Below are positions 1 through 9,087 of a DNA stretch of 12,629 nt, in pieces (the first letter of the stretch is position 1; every line of letters starts with the position of its first letter). The DNA comes from an uncultured Deinococcales bacterium (GTDB lineage Bacteria; Deinococcota; Deinococci; Deinococcales; JAAFIG01). Under the pieces are notes generated by a model. That model was given only the letters and a program-made list of their open reading frames with translations, made no database searches and had not been told where the DNA came from. The stretch covers positions 1 through 12,629 of the forward strand of contig CAXTTL010000141.1 of assembly GCA_964247135.1 (NCBI GenBank), given 5' to 3'. The translations under genes were made by a program, and so were the position numbers.

Positions 1-53
1 TCGGTTGTATCCTAAACTTGATAATCAATAATAATCACTGTGGTCATGCACTA
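1..53 (+). mobile_element. Right end of a probable IS630-family insertion sequence (transposase C-terminus, terminal repeat and TA target), truncated by the window edge
   Basis: Frame 2 (2..31) reads RLYPKLDNQ*, matching the C-terminal signature of many IS630 transposases (WQFTxxDARIKLxRLYP). It is followed within ~20 bp by ...GTGGTCATGCAC-TA-G, the CACTAG-type end typical of IS630 elements, which duplicate TA. Only 9 codons are visible. Confidence 0.65.
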
Positions 54-509
54 GTGCAAAAATTGGACGATACAACGTTTTACAGAAAGCATTTTCTACC
101 TATTTTGCAAGGTTTAAAAGCAGTTGACTTCCTTGCATTTGATCCTAAAAAATCAGAATTGTGGTTGATTGAGGTCAAAGACTATCGTGCTCACAGACGA
201 ACAAAAAAGATTGATTTGGTTGATGAAATTGCGCAGAAAGTATTGTCAAGTTTGTCTTGTTTAATTGCAATGAGAGCCAATGCTAACGTGCAAGAAGAAA
301 AAATCTTTGCTGAAGAAGCCATAAAAAAAGCTCGATTAAAAGTTGTGGTTCATCTCGAGCAGCCAGAAAAGCCTAGCAAATTGCGCCCAACAGTTTATGA
401 TCCGACCAATTTGCGTATCAAATTACGCGAGAAAGTCAGGTCAATTGATTCAAAAGCGGAATTCTCGAGCATCGTATTTTGCGGAAATGTGCCTTGGATA
501 GCCTCTTAA
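54..509 (+). CDS. PD-(D/E)xK nuclease-like hypothetical protein, probably 5'-truncated by the IS630 insertion (possible pseudogene)
   Basis: ORF track gives 18..509, but the TTG at 18 lies inside the putative IS. Native-looking sequence starts at about 52 (GTG at 54). Motif AVDF...LWLIEVKDY fits the D...E-x-K catalytic pattern. Visibly more AT-rich than neighbouring genes. Confidence 0.6.
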   Translation: MQKLDDTTFYRKHFLPILQGLKAVDFLAFDPKKSELWLIEVKDYRAHRRTKKIDLVDEIAQKVLSSLSCLIAMRANANVQEEKIFAEEAIKKARLKVVVHLEQPEKPSKLRPTVYDPTNLRIKLREKVRSIDSKAEFSSIVFCGNVPWIAS

Positions 510-2545: not shown

Positions 2546-3172
2546 ATGAGCCTGACCGTCATCAACCATCCGCTCGTCCAACACAAACTCGCGCTGGTCC
2601 GTGACGAACGCACGGGCAGCAAAGATTTTCGTGAACTCGTAACCGAAATCACCATGCTGATGGCATTTGAAGCCATGCGCGATTTGGAACTCGAGGATGT
2701 CGAAATCACCACGCCGGTTCAGGGCGCGACGGTCAAGATGCTTTCGGGTAAAAAACTGGCTTTGGTTGGCATTTTGCGGGCTGGTTTGATCATGGTGGAC
2801 GGCATTTTAAAGCTTGTGCCCGCCGCCAAAGTTGGGCATATTGGCACGTACCGCGATCCAGTCACCAAACTTCCCGTGCGTTATTACGCCAAACTGCCCA
2901 GCGACATTTCCGAACGCCGCGTGTTTATCGTTGACCCGATGCTCGCCACGGGCGGCAGCGCGGTGGACGCGATTGCAGAACTGAAAAAAGCTGGCGCGTC
3001 AAACATCAAACTCCTCAACATCATCGCCGCGCCAGAGGGTGTGGCTCGAGTTCAGGCGGCGCATCCCGATGTCGAGATTGTGGTCGCGGCGCTCGATTCG
3101 CACCTGAACGATCACGCGTATATTGTGCCTGGGCTTGGCGATGCGGGTGATCGAATTTACGGAACCAAATAG
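2546..3172 (+). CDS. upp: Uracil phosphoribosyltransferase
   Basis: [23 protein letters not shown]-binding [11 protein letters not shown] and C-terminal [17 protein letters not shown]; 208 aa. Confidence 0.98.
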
Positions 3173-3206
3173 GTCGCACTGTGAGAATTTCCCTCATCAT
3201 CTCGAG

Positions 3207-3212
3207 TAGAAT
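3207..3212 (+). promoter_or_regulatory. -10 element for a leaderless wecA/tagO-like transcript
   Basis: TAGAAT ends 6 nt before GTG 3219; no SD; immediately preceded by CTCGAG. Confidence 0.6.
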
Positions 3213-3218
3213 TCAATC

Positions 3219-4319
3219 GTGACGGAGTTCTTAAAAATGCTTGGCGTTTCTGGTTCGCTCGAGGCTGGGCTGTTTCCAGTGATCGCCATTTTTATCACCG
3301 CCATTTTGGTGACCTGGTTTTTTGTGCCCAGGGTGCGCGGTTTTGCGGTTGAAAAGGGTTTGGGTGACAAGCCCAACGAACGGCGTTTGAACAAAGAAAT
3401 CTTGCCAAACTTGGGTGGTTTGACGGTCTTTGCGGGCGTGATCGCGGCGCTGATCGTGGCAACGGCGCTCAAGTCACAAATTTTGGCAACCGTCAATGTC
3501 CAAGTGCTGGCGATCATTCTGGGCGGTGCAATTTTGGTCTTGATCGGTTTTATCGACGATCAATTCGAGTTGCCCAGCATGTTTAGACTTGGTGTTCAAT
3601 TTTTGTGTGCGGGTTTGCTGGTCGTGAACGGCATTCGCATTGACATCACGTTTTTGCCAACTTGGGCGGACACCGCGCTGACCTTATTCTGGATTGTCGG
3701 CATCACCAACGCCGTCAATCTTCTGGATGGCATCGACGGCAACGTTGGCGGTTTGGGCTTTATCAGTTCCATCTGCCTGCTCGCCCTCAGCGCTCAATTC
3801 TCAACTCGAGCTGCCGCCACCTTGATTCTGGCGGCGTTGGCTGGGGCTTGCCTCGGGTTTTTGCGGCACAATTTTAATCCCTCGAGAATCATTCTCGGTG
3901 ACGCGGGCGCGACTTTTATCGGGTACACGCTGGCTGCCGTGTCTGTCTTGGGTACGGTGAAGATTGCGGCGTTCGCCAGCTTGCTCGCGCCCGTGGTGAT
4001 TTTGCTGGTGCCGATCATCGACACCACCCAAGTCGTGGTGAAACGCATCATGCGCGGGGTGCGCCCCGACACCCCAGGCAAAGACCATTTGCATCATTTG
4101 CTGTTAAAACGCGGTTTTGACCAGCGCCGCAGCGTGCTGATTTTGTGGGGCGCAACCTTATTCCTAAACGTGGTCGGCATGGTCTTGCAACATGCCAGAC
4201 CCATTGTCATTATTGTGACCGTGTTTGGTGTGGTCGTGATGCTGGCATTTGTCGCGCAGGTGCGACTTCGAGAGGTCAAACTCGAGGCTCAAAAAGCGCT
4301 CGCCAATTCAAATTCTTAA
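3219..4319 (+). CDS. wecA: Undecaprenyl-phosphate GlcNAc-1-phosphate transferase (WecA/TagO type, MraY superfamily)
   Basis: Multi-pass membrane protein with PNLGG, IGFIDD, GITNAVNLLDGIDG, NFNPSRIILGDAGA and the HLHH motif typical of WecA/TagO; adjacent to wecB. Confidence 0.9.
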   Translation: MTEFLKMLGVSGSLEAGLFPVIAIFITAILVTWFFVPRVRGFAVEKGLGDKPNERRLNKEILPNLGGLTVFAGVIAALIVATALKSQILATVNVQVLAIILGGAILVLIGFIDDQFELPSMFRLGVQFLCAGLLVVNGIRIDITFLPTWADTALTLFWIVGITNAVNLLDGIDGNVGGLGFISSICLLALSAQFSTRAAATLILAALAGACLGFLRHNFNPSRIILGDAGATFIGYTLAAVSVLGTVKIAAFASLLAPVVILLVPIIDTTQVVVKRIMRGVRPDTPGKDHLHHLLLKRGFDQRRSVLILWGATLFLNVVGMVLQHARPIVIIVTVFGVVVMLAFVAQVRLREVKLEAQKALANSNS

Positions 4320-4346
4320 ACTCGAGTTTTCAAGGAGTGTGAAGGT

Positions 4347-5471
4347 ATTAGCCAGTTAAAACGTGTGGTGGTGGCGTTTGGAACGCGTCCAGAGGCGATC
4401 AAGATGGCTCCGGTGATTTTGGCGCTGCGCCAAAATCCGATGCTCGAGGTGAAGGTCTTAAGCACGGGTCAGCAGCGTCAACAGGTCGAGGATGGCTTGA
4501 AGATTTTTAGCATTGTGCCAGATAACGATTTGCAGGTCATGACCGAGCGTCAAACCCTGCCAGGTTTGATGGGCAAAATCGTGCCTGCCGCCGCCGATAA
4601 ACTCCGCGAACTGAACGCCGATTATGTTTTGGTTCACGGCGATACCCTGACCTCGTTTGCGGTGGCGCTGGCGGCTTTTTTCGAGCAAATCCCTGTCGCC
4701 CACGTCGAGGCTGGGCTGCGTTCGGGCAGTCTGCGCGAACCCTTCCCAGAGGAAGCCAACCGCAAACTGACCAGCGTCATTACCGATCTGGACTTACCGC
4801 CAACCAGGGGTTCAGCCGAAAACCTGTACAAAGAGGGCAAGGGCAGCTCGAGTGTGGTGGTGACAGGTCAAACCGAGGTCGATGCGGTCTTGTTCGCCAG
4901 CACCAGGGGGGTAGCGCCCGAACTTCCAGCAGGCAAGCGAATTGTGACCGTGACCATGCACCGCCGCGAGAACCTGCCCGTGATGCGCGAACTCGCCGCC
5001 GCTTTGGGCAAGGTTGCCAGTGCGCACCCCGACACGCATTTTGTGATTCCAGTCCATTTAAATCCAGCCGTGCGCGAAGCCATTTACCCAGAACTCGAGC
5101 ACATTGGGAATTTCAGTTTGCTCGAGCCGCTCGAGTTTGGCGCGATGGCGGCACTGATGGCACGCTCGAGTTTGCTGGTCACCGATTCTGGCGGGGTGCA
5201 AGAGAGCGGCGCGACTTTGGGTGTGCCTGTGGTGGTGCTTCGCAACGTCACCGAACGTCCAGAGGGTTTGGTGGCGGGCGTCCTGAAACTGGCTGGAACG
5301 ACGGGCGATGGCGTATTCAAGACCGTCAATCAATTGCTCTCGAGCGAGGAGGCTTTGAACGCCATGCGCGGCAAACCAAACCCTTACGGCGATGGTCATG
5401 CCTCGAGCCGCGTGGCGCAGGCGGTGGCGTGGAAGTTGGGGCTTGGGGAGCGTCCGAGCGATTGGCAGTAA
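4347..5471 (+). CDS. wecB: UDP-N-acetylglucosamine 2-epimerase (non-hydrolysing)
   Basis: [60 protein letters not shown]. First canonical start is GTG 4365, but the SD AAGGAG (4332-4337) points to ATT at 4347. Confidence 0.95.
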
Positions 5472-5507: not shown

Positions 5508-5544
5508 AAAAAACCTCGAGAGACATTTGATCGTCTCTCGGGTT
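5508..5544 (-). terminator. Intrinsic terminator of the peptide-lipoprotein operon (possibly also used by wecB)
   Basis: AACC(T)CGAGAGAC (5512-5524) / GTCTCTCGGGTT (5533-5544), 8-nt loop; the A-run at 5508-5513 gives a U-tail on the minus strand. Confidence 0.75.
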
Positions 5545-5568: not shown

Positions 5569-6777
5569 TTATGGAAGTACGTCAACATCCAAAGTGGTTG
5601 AAGTGGTCGTGGTTGAGTCGGTTAAATCCACGCTGATCGTGTGCGGACTTCCGACAGGGGTGGCAGCAAGGTAAGTGTGGCTGGCAGCGATAGGAGTTGC
5701 TGTCAATGTGACGCCAGTAAACGAATCTGCGGCAGTTGCATCGTCCCAGTCAACCGTAATGTCTGTGACAGATGTACCGGCGGCTGCCCTGTAGGTGATG
5801 TTCAGCGGGTAATTCACATTGGCGTTGGCAGTTGTGCTGTTGGCACTGATGTCCACAAAAGGGCTGACATCGCACGAAATGCTGAGCAAACAAACTGGGC
5901 TTGTGCTGGTCAACACGTTCCAAACTCGAGTTGTTGTAAACGCCACATTGGCAACGTCTGAGTCATTTCCAGCCAAATAAACGTCGTCTGCGGTGACGGC
6001 AGCGGCTCGAGTATTGGCGTCGGCAGTCGTATCACCAAGTCCACGGCTGACTCGGGTGTTGGTGTCGTCTGCGATCACAAAGTCTGCTTTGAATTTGTAG
6101 GCGGAGTTGACGTTTGCATTTGGCAGTTTGTAGGCAATGGTGATGGTGCCCGTACCGCCTGCCACGAAGACCCGACCGCCAGTGCTGTTGCGGGCAACAA
6201 AGCCGTATTGCAAGATGGTGTCGCCTGCGGCGATGGTGCTGGGAATCAGGGCAGTTGCTTCGGTGGTGACTTGAGCTATTTCATCCAGTGTAAAACCTTG
6301 AAAATCGGCGTTGGAATTGTCAATGGTGTAACCAAAAATCGGAAAGCCAGTATAGATGGTTTTATGGATGGGCAGCAGGCTTTGGGCGTTGCTGCCGCTT
6401 GCGCCACCATTAAAATTGATCATGCTTTCGATGGCTGTTCCACCAATGCCAGTGCCAAGTTTGTTGTAGGCGTGTAAGGTTAAATTGCTGAAAGGGATAT
6501 TGGCGGTCACTGGAAAGGTCGCGCTGAGGAAGCGGTTGCCGCTGCCAGCGTCAACATAATCCACAAAAGTTGGTGTGCCAAACGTCACAGCAGTGTCTGC
6601 CACGGCAGCACGGGGTGAAAAGTGGGTGCTCGAGCTTCCAGCATCCGCGCCAATGCCCAGTGATACCGTGCCAATAACCTTGCTCGAGGGGGCTGGGTTG
6701 GTGTTCAGGCTTGGGTTTTGAGAGCACGAGACAGCCAGAAAAAGTGGAAGAATCCAAGCAACGTTTTTGAAATTCAT
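5569..6777 (-). CDS. Putative surface lipoprotein, Thr/Ala/Gly-rich and predicted beta-rich, with a C-terminal PKD/Ig-like domain
   Basis: Signal peptide MNFKNVAWILPLFLAVS-C with a lipobox-like Cys18, then a Pro/Ser/Asn tether. C-terminal VDWDD...ASHTY...G.HTISVDLTD resembles PKD (WDFGDG...HTY...GxYxVxLTV). SD AAAGGAG at 6786-6792; ATGA overlap with the upstream peptide gene. Confidence 0.8.
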   Translation of the reverse strand: MNFKNVAWILPLFLAVSCSQNPSLNTNPAPSSKVIGTVSLGIGADAGSSSTHFSPRAAVADTAVTFGTPTFVDYVDAGSGNRFLSATFPVTANIPFSNLTLHAYNKLGTGIGGTAIESMINFNGGASGSNAQSLLPIHKTIYTGFPIFGYTIDNSNADFQGFTLDEIAQVTTEATALIPSTIAAGDTILQYGFVARNSTGGRVFVAGGTGTITIAYKLPNANVNSAYKFKADFVIADDTNTRVSRGLGDTTADANTRAAAVTADDVYLAGNDSDVANVAFTTTRVWNVLTSTSPVCLLSISCDVSPFVDISANSTTANANVNYPLNITYRAAAGTSVTDITVDWDDATAADSFTGVTLTATPIAASHTYLAATPVGSPHTISVDLTDSTTTTSTTLDVDVLP

Positions 6778-6971
6778 ATTCCAAGCTCCTTTGGATCGAG
6801 ACTGACCGAATCGTCCAAAATGGAAGGGAACGGTTGGACCATGCCGATTGAAAGCCCAATGCCGGCGGTCAGAGAGCTGTAGTCCCCGTGGACCTCGAGT
6901 TTGGGGGTTTGATACGGTTTTTGTTCGAGGAGCGCGGTTGAATTGAGTACATCAGATGTTTTGCTTTTCAT
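6774..6971 (-). CDS. 65-aa peptide with a lasso-type RiPP leader motif (orphan precursor-like)
   Basis: Strong SD AAAGGAG (6977-6983) 5 nt before ATG; stop overlaps the next start (ATGA). Contains YQTPKLEVHGDYSSLTA|G = YxxPxLxxxGxxxxxTx|G. Confidence 0.8.
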   Translation of the reverse strand: MKSKTSDVLNSTALLEQKPYQTPKLEVHGDYSSLTAGIGLSIGMVQPFPSILDDSVSLDPKELGI

Positions 6972-7069
6972 GGTAACTCCTTTACAAAAAATTTGAATTG
7001 TGATGATGTTATACGTTTTGACGCTTTTGTTTTTAAGTCTTCCCTAACCAAATTGCTCACACAGTTCTA

Positions 7070-7109
7070 ATTATAACGTGAAGAATTGAAAATAAGCTGA
7101 ATTTTCAGC
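7070..7109 (-). promoter_or_regulatory. Putative promoter of the peptide-lipoprotein operon with an upstream palindromic binding site
   Basis: Consensus TATAAT at 7075-7070, no good -35, and palindrome GCTGAA-N2-TTCAGC at 7096-7109. Confidence 0.5.
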
Positions 7110-7287
7110 CACTTTATCTTTTGTAAGCGACATCGTTCAGAACGCTTGAACTCGGTATAAAAAATAACAATGCACAGCGCTTTCAAAAGGATATTTTGCT
7201 ATTATTTATGCTCGAGTCAAAATAGAACGTGTGGGCAATTTTCGTGTCGTTTTGATTTTGCAGGCGGTGGCGAAGATTAACAAAAAC

Positions 7288-9087
7288 TCAAATGATAGCC
7301 TCGAGTTCATTCACCATGTTTTTTAAAACTTCAAAACCGCGCTGCACGGGTTCTGGGCTGTTCATGTCAATGCCAGCCAATTTCAGGGCATCAATCGGAT
7401 ACCTCGAGCTGCCGGTTTTCAAAAAATCGATATAGCGTTTGGCGGCGGGTTCACCCTCGGTCAACACATCTGTTGCCAGCGCATTGGCGGCGGCAATTCC
7501 CGTGGCATATTGATACACGTAAAATGGCGAATACAAATGCCCAAAGTTCATCCAACACGAACCCAGACGGGTTGCATCAATGTTTACCGAACCGCCGTAA
7601 CCTTCACCAAACAATTCGACCAAACGTTCGCTCAAAAACGGGGCATTGATCGAACCGCCGCGCTCGACTCGCTCGTACATTTCACGCTCGAGCTTTGCAA
7701 GGGTCGGCATGACAAACAAATAGCGGTGAAAATTCGAGAATGCCTCCTCGAGCAGCGCCAGTTTCGCGGTTTTGTCGGTTGCCGATTTTAACAGGTCACT
7801 GCGCACCATCGCCTGATTGAAATTGCTGGCGACCTCGGCAACGAACATGCTGTAATCGGTGTAAATGGCGGGTTGGGTGGTGTTGCTAAAGTACGAGTGC
7901 ATCGAATGCCCCAACTCGTGCGCCAAGGTTGAAAGCGAGTAGAGGTCGTCCGTCCAGCTCATAAAAATAAACGGATGCGTCCCCTGAGCGCCACTCGAGT
8001 ACGCGCCCGCGCCCTTGCCCTGATTCGGACCCCAATCGACCCAGCGTTGCTCGAGCAAACCTTTGCGCATGGGGTCGATGTACTCCGCGCCGAGCGGTTC
8101 CATGCCCTTCAGGATCAAATGCGAAGCCTCGAGAAACGTAACTTTGGTGCTTGGCACGAGCGGCGCTGGAGATTCGTAAATCGGTGCGTCGCTGGTGTGC
8201 AAAGCCCCGTTCATGGCTTGCTTGCGAAGCCGCCAATACTTGTGCCAGAGGGGCTGATACTCTTTGAACGTCTCGAGCAGATTTTCATAGACCCGCAGCG
8301 GTATGTGGTTTCGCGCCAAACTCATTTCCAAACTCGAGCCGTAATTTCTGGCTCGCGCCTTAAACACATAAGCCTTCACGCTGGCTTGCAAGGTTGCCGC
8401 CAGCGTATTTTGAAACGCCAAATGACCGTCGGCGTAAGCTTCAAAAGCCGCTCGACGCACGTCGGCGTTGGTGTCTGAAAGATACTCCCCGACGCTCGAG
8501 TGTGAAACTTCGACCTCAACGCCGTCGCGCAAAATCGGCTCAAATTTCATGTCGGCATCGTTCACCGCGCTCGAGATGCTGTACGCAGCCCCGAGCGGAT
8601 CGCTGGCTTGCGCCAAGAGCATCTCGACCTCAAAGCTGCGCACATGATCGCGCTCGGAGCGCAACTCTTCAAAATAATGACGGTACATTTCAAGCTTGGG
8701 TTCGTCACGCACAAATTGCTCGAGTTTTGCGTCTTCAAAAGCCAGCAACTCTGGACCAAAAAATGCCGCCGCGCCAGACAATTGTGCCCCAGCCGAGGCA
8801 ATCTCGGCATTCATGCTCGAGTAGGTCGTGTTCGTGCCCTCGATTGACGCCAGCAAACTGGCGTACATGCTGATCTTGTAAGCCTCCATGAAAATGCGGT
8901 CACGAAGCGCCAAAGCCTCAAACAAAACCGTACCAGATTCGCCCAGGCGTCCAGCGTACTTGGAAATTTCGCTTGCAGAGGCTGGAAGTGTCTCGAGGGC
9001 TTGGCGCCACTCGGTTTCGTTCGCAAAGACGGTTTCGACACTCCAGGTTTTGGCTTTTTCGACTTCACTGCGTTTGGGTAAGCTCAT
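7288..9087 (-). CDS. pepF: Oligoendopeptidase F (M3B zinc metallopeptidase)
   Basis: 599 aa; GKGAGAYS, TLAHELGHSMH (HEXXH), FVAEVAS, H..FYVYQYATG, GSSRYPIDALKLAGIDM. Confidence 0.95.
   Translation of the reverse strand: MSLPKRSEVEKAKTWSVETVFANETEWRQALETLPASASEISKYAGRLGESGTVLFEALALRDRIFMEAYKISMYASLLASIEGTNTTYSSMNAEIASAGAQLSGAAAFFGPELLAFEDAKLEQFVRDEPKLEMYRHYFEELRSERDHVRSFEVEMLLAQASDPLGAAYSISSAVNDADMKFEPILRDGVEVEVSHSSVGEYLSDTNADVRRAAFEAYADGHLAFQNTLAATLQASVKAYVFKARARNYGSSLEMSLARNHIPLRVYENLLETFKEYQPLWHKYWRLRKQAMNGALHTSDAPIYESPAPLVPSTKVTFLEASHLILKGMEPLGAEYIDPMRKGLLEQRWVDWGPNQGKGAGAYSSGAQGTHPFIFMSWTDDLYSLSTLAHELGHSMHSYFSNTTQPAIYTDYSMFVAEVASNFNQAMVRSDLLKSATDKTAKLALLEEAFSNFHRYLFVMPTLAKLEREMYERVERGGSINAPFLSERLVELFGEGYGGSVNIDATRLGSCWMNFGHLYSPFYVYQYATGIAAANALATDVLTEGEPAAKRYIDFLKTGSSRYPIDALKLAGIDMNSPEPVQRGFEVLKNMVNELEAII

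Follow-up and report, generated by a model that had tools for sequence, protein, structure and literature searches.

Why is a small peptide gene with a RiPP-type leader coupled to the gene for a surface lipoprotein? The usual way to find RiPP precursors is to search beside their enzymes. The locus analyzed here lies in a 12,629-nt stretch of DNA (the window) from an uncultured Deinococcales bacterium. It encodes a 65-amino-acid (aa) peptide (P0001) followed by a 402-aa lipoprotein (P0002). An earlier note on this DNA had described the pair as a self-contained module. We asked what the peptide is, how often the pair recurs, and which genes might act on it.

The peptide and lipoprotein genes are translationally coupled

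We found that the Shine-Dalgarno sequence and start codon of the lipoprotein gene lie within the last codons of the peptide gene, where stop and start overlap as ATGA (Table 1). This agrees with the earlier claim that the two genes are translationally coupled. The note had also assigned the pair its own terminator and promoter. The terminator is strong, with a T-run and a hairpin of -23.5 kcal/mol (z = -5.6) that none of 200 shuffled sequences equaled in stability. The promoter claim held in part: TATAAT is present, but a promoter scan called no full -35/-10 sigma-70 site there. Thus, we list this element as a candidate only.

The pair was said to sit between wecB and pepF, and both flanking genes matched the expected models (TIGR00236, 357.8 bits, and TIGR00181, 547.1 bits). 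The pairing goes beyond coincidence, and the order wecB-lipoprotein-peptide-pepF is kept in five of five same-genus genomes. Apart from these genes, the 12.6-kb window contains sugar ABC importer genes and a small number of other genes. We found no RiPP recognition element (RRE), kinase, exporter, or lasso cyclase, B1, or B2 gene within the window.

Table 1. Features of the peptide-lipoprotein locus (window coordinates)
Feature	Position	Strand	Basis or remark
TATAAT, candidate -10 element	7070-7075	minus	From sequence; ~95 nt upstream of peptide start
Shine-Dalgarno AAGGAG of peptide ORF	6977-6982	minus	From sequence; 5 nt ahead of peptide ATG
65-aa leader-bearing peptide P0001 (MKSK...KELGI*)	6774-6971	minus	ORF, stop codon included
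Leader recognition motif Y20-Q-T-P23-K-L25-E26-V-H28 to T35 (Y0, P3, L5, E6, H8, T15)	6867-6914	minus	Alignment
Conserved "core" with acidic tail (A36-I65); S41 in GLSIG nearly invariant	6777-6866	minus	Alignment
Shine-Dalgarno AAGGAG of lipoprotein gene	6786-6791	minus	Within peptide codons K61-E62
ATGA overlap of peptide stop and lipoprotein start	6774-6777	minus	From sequence; translational coupling
402-aa lipoprotein P0002	5569-6777	minus	ORF, stop codon included
Signal peptide and lipobox MNFKNVAWILPLFLAVSC, ending LAVSC	6724-6777	minus	Read from sequence by the lipobox rule
Beta-rich N-terminal domain common to the lipoprotein family (residues ~30-300)	5878-6690	minus	AF2 model, pLDDT 81.5
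C-terminal PKD domain of P0002 (residues ~303-402)	5572-5871	minus	Structure match
Intrinsic terminator, 9-bp stem (5 G-C pairs) then T-run	5508-5540 (hairpin 5517-5540)	minus	Fold and shuffles

The peptide-lipoprotein cassette recurs in related genomes

Paralogous cassettes had been predicted elsewhere in the genome, and we found them. A strict lasso-motif regular expression run over the genome proved too narrow (2 true members), and we used profile searches instead. The peptides are dispersed, with 1 to 13 profile matches per genome at E ≤ 1e-3. In 41 related genomes, 83 of the 104 peptide matches examined lie directly upstream of a lipoprotein gene, and another 17 are family members without a lipoprotein. 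The cassettes are divergent paralogues in the same and related genomes. The window's genome alone has four further ATGA cassettes and a fifth spaced by 1 nt. Among 41 cassettes that we fetched, 27 overlap by ATGA and 36 are spaced within -8 to +1 nt. Every one of the 41 downstream proteins has a hydrophobic run followed by a Cys and carries the N-terminal domain of P0002 (N-domain) by profile. The lipoproteins of the cassette family include nuclease, beta-helix, FG-GAP, and PKD types, and across cassettes the peptide type tracks the lipoprotein type.

Checking the lipoprotein homologues for an upstream peptide gave a divided answer. The peptide precedes other homologues as well, but 66 of 123 N-domain matches, or about half, have no upstream peptide. 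The peptide is therefore no general requirement of the lipoprotein domain. There were no fused peptide-lipoprotein forms among the longer proteins, which is weak evidence. Our literature search found no paper describing such a pairing; the supplements of PMC13381572 lie outside its coverage and may list clusters like those of the linear polyphosphorylated peptides (LPPs) beyond Bacillota.

The lipoprotein joins an uncharacterized N-terminal domain to a PKD domain

A lipoprotein signal peptide finishes with a lipobox, whose Cys is invariant. The corresponding residue of P0002, C18, is nearly invariant in our lipoprotein alignments A3 and A4. P0002 itself had no Pfam or NCBIfam match, and its orthologues, which are 50 to 82% identical to it, include proteins with Pfam PKD or PKD_4 matches. 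The C-terminus of P0002 superimposes on the PKD domain of ColH (4u7k; Z 11.4, rmsd 1.9 over 84 residues), and Foldseek aligned it to ColG PKD domains with a TM score of 0.77 to 0.80.

The N-domain is uncharacterized and has no Pfam model; its conserved residues include Tyr191, Arg196, Arg202, and Arg257. It is represented by 875 cluster representatives at E ≤ 1e-3, and among the 150 of these that were listed, the best-scoring stretch begins within the first 30 residues. We scanned 34 members and found no Pfam family in this stretch; one member that consists of the domain only gave 0 matches. Elsewhere in a few of the 34, we found PKD, LTD, RCC1-type, and NPCBM_assoc families. Foldseek returned no PDB match to the N-domain at E ≤ 1e-3, a result that does not by itself make the fold new. 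A wide VIA-align search peaked at Z 7.0 (WSSV VP37, rmsd 4.3), within the usual background, and the ESM Atlas gave no usable match. Complex prediction for lipoprotein residues 30 to 402 with the peptide scored 0.40, 0.00, and 0.00 in three runs and, with controls not folded, is evidence neither for nor against contact.

The peptide is a conserved protein with a lasso-type leader register

We identified 22 orthologues of the peptide, mostly of 65 aa, in which conservation runs from Y20 to the C-terminus. Over codons 20 to 60, dN/dS was 0.06 to 0.14 in 15 of 15 pairs (dS, 0.33 to 0.82), and codons 1 to 19 evolve in a near-neutral manner. Because of this low dN/dS and because frame and length are kept in 22 orthologues, we conclude that the peptide is encoded by a real gene.

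As the note had proposed, the leader is of the RiPP type, and specifically of the lasso class. By the published definition, a lasso leader has a Y/W-x-x-P-x-L recognition motif and a Thr at the penultimate leader position. In the alignment of 23 sequences, Y20, T22, P23, K24, L25, E26, H28, and T35 are invariant. The peptide scored 20.1 bits on the NCBIfam model NF033521 (lasso_leader_L3), above the cut-off of 19, and 21.1 bits on lasso_cyano, under the cut-off of 33. The same register is present in 50 distinct lipoprotein-coupled paralogues: Y0 in 48, P3 in 50, L5 in 49, and E6 in 50, followed by H8 in 33, an aromatic residue at +11 in 41, T15 in 32, and S18 in 25. At +18, the register of Ser3 in the LPPs, the window peptide has Ile rather than Ser; the closest conserved Ser lies at +21. 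Taken together, we consider the peptide to be probably an RRE-recognized, precursor-like peptide.

Neither a signal peptide nor a lipobox is present in the peptide, whereas P0002 carries an export signal. We also considered the peptide as a membrane helix and dropped this idea; a hydrophobic 20-mer is convincing only in the C126-type paralogues.

Candidate recognition and modification genes lie elsewhere in the genome

The description of the pair as self-contained did not survive a search of the whole genome, since the genes likely to recognize and modify the peptide are located on other contigs. Contig C14 encodes a discrete PqqD-type RRE (62.1 bits on Pfam PqqD), which, among solved structures, is closest to TbiB1 and TfuB1, two lasso B1 proteins. 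The adjoining gene encodes an HprK-related kinase. On contig C33, we found an NTP_transf_5 domain fused to a lasso B2 domain, which scored 42.2 bits on NF033537 (cut-off, 33). These genes are unlinked to the cassettes in the window's genome. In related genomes, all three genes (RRE, kinase, and B2) lie side by side in G011, and in G020 and G036 the kinase and B2 genes adjoin each other.

The RRE and kinase from C14 reach the curated cut-off of no named NCBIfam model (52.9 versus 70 and 31.6 versus 200, respectively). They resemble the TIGRFAMs "HPr-rel-A system," in which a PqqD-family chaperone lies beside an HprK-related kinase, and they matched TIGR04352 (HprK-related kinase A) and TIGR04353 (PqqD-family chaperone). 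In contrast to members of that system, they scored 31.6 against 200 and 23.3 against 35, respectively. We do not count the pair as a member because both scores are far under the curated cut-offs. To our knowledge, the function of this system is itself uncharacterized.

The note had called for profiling of co-occurring genes, and the candidate RRE, HprK-like kinase, and B2 genes do co-occur with the peptides within the family (19 genomes, which are kin and not independent). All 13 kinase-bearing genomes have peptides at E ≤ 1e-3. In the three family genomes without peptides at this threshold (G007, G008, and G010), we found neither the kinase nor PF13471. Three genomes with peptides, G002 (82% complete), G013 (94%), and G018 (57%), yielded no kinase. 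Three Deinococcus-like genomes have the kinase and B2 genes and no such peptides at E ≤ 1e-3; therefore, the enzymes may serve other substrates. In the window's genome (84% complete), a search with TIGR02228 for a SipW-type peptidase had no match at E ≤ 0.01, and no exporter of the MsbA-like LPP kind was found.

The system resembles the LPPs of Bacillota and differs from them

The closest published parallel is the LPPs (Popov et al., Nat Commun 2026, PMC13381572). In that article, their motif is given as YxxPxVLxHQxIxFETxxS, with cleavage after T-1 and phosphorylation on Ser3, and the producer encodes a discrete RRE together with an HprK-like kinase and an NTP transferase. Also described there are a SipW-like leader peptidase, LppS (a signal peptidase I of the archaeal type), an MsbA-like exporter, and a precursor inside the biosynthetic gene cluster. 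The authors describe LPPs as restricted to Bacillota and their biological role as unknown.

Compared with LPPs as described there, the peptides here share the YxxP leader register (Y0, P3, a hydrophobic residue at 5, H8, and T15), and S18 is present in half of the paralogues. The discrete RRE, HprK-like kinase, and NTP transferase are all encoded in the window's genome, unlinked to the precursor. No cyclase takes part, and a separate WxxP lasso cluster coexists with the YxxP peptides, mirroring the published WxxP/YxxP split. The locus adjoins envelope polysaccharide genes (wecA-like and wecB), as in the LPP case.

In contrast to the LPPs of that account, the present system belongs to another phylum, Deinococcota, and its precursors are dispersed rather than clustered with enzymes. 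Its candidate peptidase combines a B2 domain with an NTP transferase in one fusion. Two LPP hallmarks are missing, as neither the exporter nor a SipW-type peptidase was found. The window peptide has no Ser at the Ser3 position, and each precursor is coupled in translation to a lipoprotein, an arrangement not reported for LPPs.

A second comparison is with the lipidated macrocyclic peptides (PMC13056109), in which the lipoprotein pathway is reported to be co-opted to lipidate a RiPP peptide. Both cases tie RiPP biosynthesis to bacterial lipoprotein biology. Here, however, the peptide has no lipobox and lies upstream of a separate, large lipoprotein.

Proposed mechanism and alternatives

Our best reading, which we hold tentatively, is that the peptide is an LPP-like precursor that undergoes maturation in trans and is produced in stoichiometric amounts with its lipoprotein. 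According to this model, the leader Y20-x-x-P-x-L-E-x-H ... T35 would be the docking site for the discrete PqqD-type RRE from contig C14. The RRE would hand the peptide to its neighbor, the HprK-like kinase, and probably also to the NTP-transferase::B2 cysteine-peptidase fusion of contig C33. By analogy with the LPPs of Bacillota, the product would be linear rather than a lasso, probably phosphorylated on Ser, with its leader removed; a linear phosphorylated product as such is somewhat less likely than not. Peptide and lipoprotein would come from one bicistronic mRNA with a stop/start overlap, and each lipoprotein would therefore be made with its own cognate peptide. The peptide would most likely act with the conserved N-domain in envelope display, although direct partnering with this domain is somewhat unlikely. 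The fullest form of the model is rather unlikely: a two-component surface module in which a trans-matured, linear, phosphorylated, and possibly further decorated RiPP is made one for one with the lipoprotein and serves as a dedicated ligand, anchor, or cofactor of the N-domain.

An unlikely alternative, though the one that survives best, is that the peptide is an unmodified small protein. It would descend from a RiPP precursor that is no longer matured and act directly on the lipoprotein, either in the cytoplasm or at the membrane; one such role would be that of a chaperone or targeting factor dedicated to the nascent lipoprotein. The leader-like motif would be kept for this contact. Among orthologues, the "core" is conserved as much as the leader, whereas natural-product RiPPs typically have variable cores. 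The correlation of peptide type with lipoprotein type, the tight coupling, and the distance of the putative enzymes from the cassettes would also suit such a protein. On the other hand, the exact RRE-binding register is kept, T15 included, 17 of the 104 family members have no lipoprotein, and within the family the presence of the peptide tracks that of the kinase and B2.

Could the peptide have no role of its own, so that its translation only sets the rate of lipoprotein translation through the stop/start coupling? The ATGA overlap and the Shine-Dalgarno sequence in the last peptide codons, conserved in most cassettes, are what such a regulatory upstream ORF would need. However, strong purifying selection acts at the protein level on 41 codons and leaves synonymous sites free, the motif is common to very divergent paralogues, and the 66 lipoprotein paralogues noted above lack any upstream ORF. 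We conclude that a purely regulatory leader, one of the options in the earlier note, fits poorly, because of the protein-level selection on the C-terminal two-thirds and the members without a lipoprotein, and we regard it as distinctly improbable. Of the other options given there, the peptide may partner with or be cross-linked to the lipoprotein, and nothing that we observed speaks for an export tag.

Much less probable still is a canonical lasso precursor that lies away from its cluster and is processed by the lasso enzymes of contig C32. The Y/P/L triad, the Thr near the cleavage site, and the NF033521 score all resemble lasso systems, as do the RRE and the B2 domain. Cleavage after A36 would place T at -2 and G at +1, and the genome does have a complete lasso cluster. 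In contrast, the core does not fit. A lasso core begins with a small residue and has an Asp or Glu at position 7, 8, or 9 that closes the macrolactam ring. After A36, the core reads GIGLSIGMV..., with its first acidic residue at position 17, and the paralogues likewise have no Asp or Glu at positions 7 to 9. Judged by core sequence, a canonical lasso product is excluded. The C32 cluster encodes its own 52-aa WxxP-type precursor along with B1, B2, C, and a kinase homologue, and its RRE is only 24% identical to that of C14. Moreover, we found no cyclase (NF033535-like) at E ≤ 1e-5 in G011, G009, or G013 (each 94% complete), all of which bear cassettes; a cyclase is neither needed nor linked here. 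The conserved rather than variable core and a genomic partner that is a lipoprotein, not a maturase, further set the peptide apart from lasso systems.

Finally, its small size might suggest that the ORF occurs by chance within the 5' untranslated region of the lipoprotein mRNA, but this has a negligible probability and is already refuted by the conservation pattern, with length and frame kept in 22 orthologues, a dN/dS of ~0.1, and a strong Shine-Dalgarno sequence of its own.

Implications for Deinococcota

The recurrence of the cassette in one bacterial family points to a connection, not yet described, between modified peptides and proteins of the cell surface. The leader-bearing peptides are scattered over the chromosome and coupled to surface lipoproteins, and their likely modification genes are elsewhere. 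If our reading of an LPP-like precursor matured in trans is true, leader recognition of the LPP/lasso type would reach into Deinococcota and would include use in trans on multiple substrates. Such precursors would escape genome mining based on clusters, and LPP-class peptides would gain a concrete biological context, namely, cell-surface lipoproteins. If the two-component module is also true, surface enzymes and adhesins would each be displayed with their own cognate modified peptide, which would be a first function for LPP-class peptides.

A translationally coupled peptide and lipoprotein gene

The earlier note had described a peptide gene translationally coupled to a surface lipoprotein gene. 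We re-read the locus and found this description correct for both open reading frames (ORFs), the lipoprotein gene's Shine-Dalgarno (SD) sequence, the ATGA overlap, the terminator, the TATAAT, and the wecB and pepF flanks. The peptide ORF ends in AAG GAG CTT GGA ATA TGA. wecB is convergent to the pair, and pepF lies upstream on the same strand. A promoter scan called no complete promoter at the TATAAT. We concluded that the two genes (the cassette) are transcribed as a unit that ends at a terminator of its own, and that they are linked by stop/start coupling.

Features of the cassette and of the lasso peptide cluster of the same genome
Sequence	Feature	Coordinates	Strand	Basis or remark
Window	65-aa peptide ORF	6774-6971	minus	ORF reading
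Window	AAGGAG, strong SD of the peptide ORF	6977-6982	minus	sequence
Window	AAGGAG, SD of the 402-aa ORF, within the peptide's last codons	6786-6791	minus	sequence
Window	ATGA overlap of peptide stop and 402-aa ORF start	6774-6777	minus	sequence
Window	402-aa lipoprotein ORF	5569-6777	minus	product starts with a signal peptide ending LAVSC
Window	Intrinsic terminator after the lipoprotein ORF	5508-5540	minus	z = -5.6 versus shuffles
Window	TATAAT	7070-7075	minus	sequence present
Contig C32 (not in window)	B2	16912-17418		
Contig C32 (not in window)	PqqD B1	17433-17714		
Contig C32 (not in window)	Asn-synthetase-like cyclase	17786-18841 + 18881-19642		apparently split in two ORFs
Contig C32 (not in window)	52-aa candidate precursor	19689-19847		WxxPxV leader, own SD
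Contig C32 (not in window)	348-aa distant HprK-kinase homologue	19947-20993		

Twenty-two orthologues of the peptide were found in a large protein collection, most of them exactly 65 aa long. In their alignment, residues 1 to 19 vary freely, and complete or near-complete invariance is seen at Y20, T22-E26, H28, Y31, L34-T35, and G37 and across most of the C-terminal half. Among six same-genus genomes, dN/dS over codons 20 to 60 was 0.06 to 0.14 in 15 of 15 pairs (dS, 0.33 to 0.82); over codons 1 to 19 it was 0.3 to 1.25, counting only pairs with computable dS. The order wecB-lipoprotein-peptide-pepF is kept in 5/5 same-genus relatives. We concluded that the 65-aa ORF is a real gene under selection.

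The window also contains a 5'-open ORF (positions 3 to 509, plus strand; at least 168 aa) with no Pfam match. Its ...ELWLIEVKDY... segment is reminiscent of PD-(D/E)XK nucleases.

Paralogous cassettes

The genome of origin (G000; 5.09 Mb, 386 contigs, 84% complete) carries five further peptide and lipoprotein copies, on contigs C147, C26, C126, C154, and C89, four with the ATGA overlap and one in which 1 nt separates the two genes. In the C89 copy, the start codon of the peptide is lost. There (about 2367-2510), and also at locus L128 of the related genome G002, no ATG, GTG, or TTG precedes the motif, which is degraded (QQTPKLEQP...). Here a peptide seems to be decaying ahead of an intact lipoprotein, a state common to two genomes.

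A peptide profile gave 106 matches at E<=1e-3 across 41 related genomes, 40 of them directly upstream of a lipoprotein match by coordinates. Of the 62 remaining matches outside G000, we fetched 60 with flanking DNA. At a spacing of -8 to +38 nt, 41 precede an ORF whose product has a signal peptide and Cys; in 3 cases the contig ends too soon, in 4 another kind of ORF comes next, and in 12 no ORF does. The additional matches in G000 comprise two followed by a lipoprotein, one without, and one at a contig edge. In total, a lipoprotein lies downstream of 83 of the 104 examined matches, with 4 at edges and 17 lacking one; this recurrence bears out the earlier prediction of paralogous cassettes. 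The fetched cassettes show the ATGA overlap in 27/41 and spacing within -8 to +1 nt in 36/41. All 41 downstream ORFs matched a profile built on the N-terminal domain (N-domain) of the lipoprotein, 20 of them without having contributed to it; none of the 4 ORFs of another kind did.

In the reverse count, 41 of 123 N-domain matches have an upstream peptide by coordinates. Five more have a weak peptide match exactly upstream, about 10 more gained a peptide when the fetched upstream DNA was searched with the profile (two are cut by contig ends), and one is the degenerate C89 copy, giving about 57/123; within G000, the figure is 6 of 16 N-domain ORFs. Pairing is thus one-directional: the peptide mostly implies the lipoprotein, but the lipoprotein domain does not imply the peptide.

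Expansion of the pair is lineage specific. At E<=1e-4 in a 201-genome sample of the phylum, the peptide profile matched 3/3 genomes of its own family (G000 included) and 1/198 elsewhere.

The coupling geometry is kept among cassettes diverged to about 35% sequence identity, and the fetched cassettes show one lipoprotein type per peptide type. The 17 peptides without a lipoprotein are distinct subtypes, either C16-type, beside a methyltransferase-like ORF, or short forms ending ...GGGSI or ...GMGSF. Together, these three observations argue for a specific one-to-one relation between peptide and lipoprotein.

Peptides ending ...LIPDPVDIGI (C16 22921-23121 and fetched loci L037, L038, L039, and L050) are genus-conserved, with no lipoprotein after them. 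The C16 copy lies just after a 271-aa ORF that is SAM-methyltransferase-like by eye; in two other genomes (L063 and L066), a short family member precedes an ORF with a similar N terminus. Very short members (L052, L056, L067, L068, L074, L079, and L086) stop 5 to 8 residues past the leader (...AGGGSI, ...AGMGSF, ...GAPGSL), with a penultimate Ser in most and no downstream gene within 120 nt in any. Such forms may represent another class of substrate of the same RiPP recognition element (RRE) and kinase.

The lipoprotein N-domain

The protein opens with a lipoprotein-type signal peptide, continues with a beta-rich N-domain of some 270 residues, and ends in a PKD domain (Z 11.4 to 4u7k). The N-domain matches no Pfam or NCBIfam model; its best solved relative (Z 7.0) is not convincing, and Foldseek gave none at E<=1e-3. 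The N-domain is the constant head of a lipoprotein family with varying tails. By eye, the tails of the G000 paralogues include a nuclease-like plus lamin-tail domain, beta-helix repeats, FG-GAP/VCBS-like repeats, and PKD repeats, of which Pfam confirmed only LTD and PKD. Out of 1.84 billion cluster representatives, the N-domain profile matched 875 at E<=1e-3, and among the 150 matches listed the best-scoring stretch starts in the protein's first 30 residues. In the relatives searched, the family itself shows an expansion of the domain (3 to 16 matches per genome in 14/18 genomes), and elsewhere in the order the domain is nearly missing (1/22). Same-genus identity is 56 to 81% for the lipoprotein versus 93 to 94% for WecB and 88 to 92% for PepF, a divergence that fits a fast-evolving, surface-exposed protein.

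One C26 paralogue (N-domain match 21112-21906, minus strand) has no upstream peptide. The n-region of its signal peptide (...FRAPKLELKHG...) resembles the peptides' xxPKLExH motif, which could be chance or a fusion remnant.

The peptide is not a canonical lasso precursor

Lasso ring closure requires an acidic residue at core position 7 to 9. The window peptide scores 20.1 bits on the NCBIfam lasso-leader model NF033521 (cut-off, 19), and we rejected a lasso product. Neither its core after T35-A36 (GIGLSIGMV...) nor those of its paralogues have such a residue. No cyclase-like gene was found at E<=1e-5 in the cassette-bearing genomes G011, G009, and G013 (each 94% complete). The sole lasso cluster of G000 (B2, B1, and cyclase) has its own 52-aa WxxP-leader precursor right after the cyclase, then the HprK-kinase homologue. 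All of these data taken together indicate that the peptide cannot make a lasso.

The C32 cluster (about 16912-20993) is complete and paeninodin-like. Large ORFs of about 935 to 1025 aa, SARP/BTAD-type regulator-like by eye, adjoin it (C32 21007-23814) and the C154 cassette (5800-8877).

A 2026 report describes linear polyphosphorylated peptides (LPPs) of Bacillota as cyclase-less relatives of paeninodin-type lasso peptides, with precursors bearing the motif YxxPxVLxHQxIxFETxxS, cut after T-1 and polyphosphorylated at Ser3, and with RRE choice set by YxxP versus WxxP (PMC13381572). Anchored on Tyr (Y0), 50 distinct lipoprotein-coupled peptides have Y0 in 48, P3 in 50, L5 in 49, E6 in 50, H8 in 33, an aromatic residue at +11 in 41, T15 in 32, G16 in 30, and S18 in 25. 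This register reads as that of LPPs, with the His, the presumptive cleavage-site Thr, and, in half, the acceptor Ser. The window peptide has Y0, P3, L5, H8, and T15, with Ile at +18 and a nearly invariant Ser at +21, within GLSIG.

Convergent to the cassette lie upp, a GT4-family glycosyl transferase gene (WecA/MraY-like, PF00953), and wecB (window 2546-5471, plus strand), the last beside the cassette in 5/5 same-genus genomes. This polysaccharide-gene neighborhood may or may not be meaningful, given that LPP clusters reside in capsular polysaccharide loci according to that report (PMC13381572).

Candidate enzymes encoded in trans

Contig C14 encodes a PqqD-family RRE (62.1 bits) whose closest relatives of solved structure are TbiB1 and TfuB1, both lasso B1 proteins. 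Among NCBIfam models it matches lasso_PqqD_Strm best, at 52.9 bits, under the cut-off of 70, and it is only 24% identical to the C32 RRE. The gene directly adjoining it encodes an HprK-related kinase that scores 31.6 bits on TIGR04352, far under the cut-off, and housekeeping genes flank the pair. Contig C33 encodes a 449-aa protein in which NTP_transf_5 is fused to a B2 peptidase domain of the lasso type (NF033537, 42.2 bits; cut-off, 33). RRE, kinase, and fusion are adjacent in the single-contig genome G011, and two Deinococcus-like genomes have kinase and B2 side by side. A search of G000 (84% complete) for a SipW-type peptidase gave no match.

RRE, kinase, and B2 genes co-occur with the selected, RRE-type leader peptide. 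Among 19 genomes of the family, related to one another and hence not independent, 13/13 kinase-bearing genomes also gave peptide matches at E<=1e-3. In G007 (91% complete), G008 (91%), and G010 (87%), which have no such peptides, the kinase and PF13471 were both absent from the matches. The kinase was also not found in peptide-bearing G002 (82%), G013 (94%), and G018 (57%).

A proposed pathway and its relation to LPPs

We propose that the C14 RRE would bind the YxxP leader, the kinase would phosphorylate a Ser just after the Thr, and the B2 domain or another peptidase would remove the leader. The linear product might then work with the lipoprotein N-domain. This last step is the weakest, since the peptide is devoid of an export signal, an exporter was not identified, and no peptide accompanies half of the N-domain paralogues. 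Of the earlier interpretation, the paralogous cassettes, the RiPP-type leader, and the coupling stand; its mechanism we refine and keep conditional.

Among known systems, the LPP family comes closest, followed by the lasso leader/RRE system on which it builds. The window peptide would work like an LPP precursor. We class it as LPP-like rather than as an LPP because, unlike in the LPP family, the cassette is not clustered with the enzymes and neither a SipW peptidase nor an exporter was found, and because the assignment is from sequence. The literature searched gave no description of such a peptide-lipoprotein pairing, although supplementary lists might name related clusters. New relative to LPPs are the phylum, the many precursors dispersed away from unlinked enzymes, and the B2::NTP-transferase fusion as the likely peptidase. 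New above all is the conserved translational coupling to a surface-lipoprotein family with an undescribed N-terminal domain.
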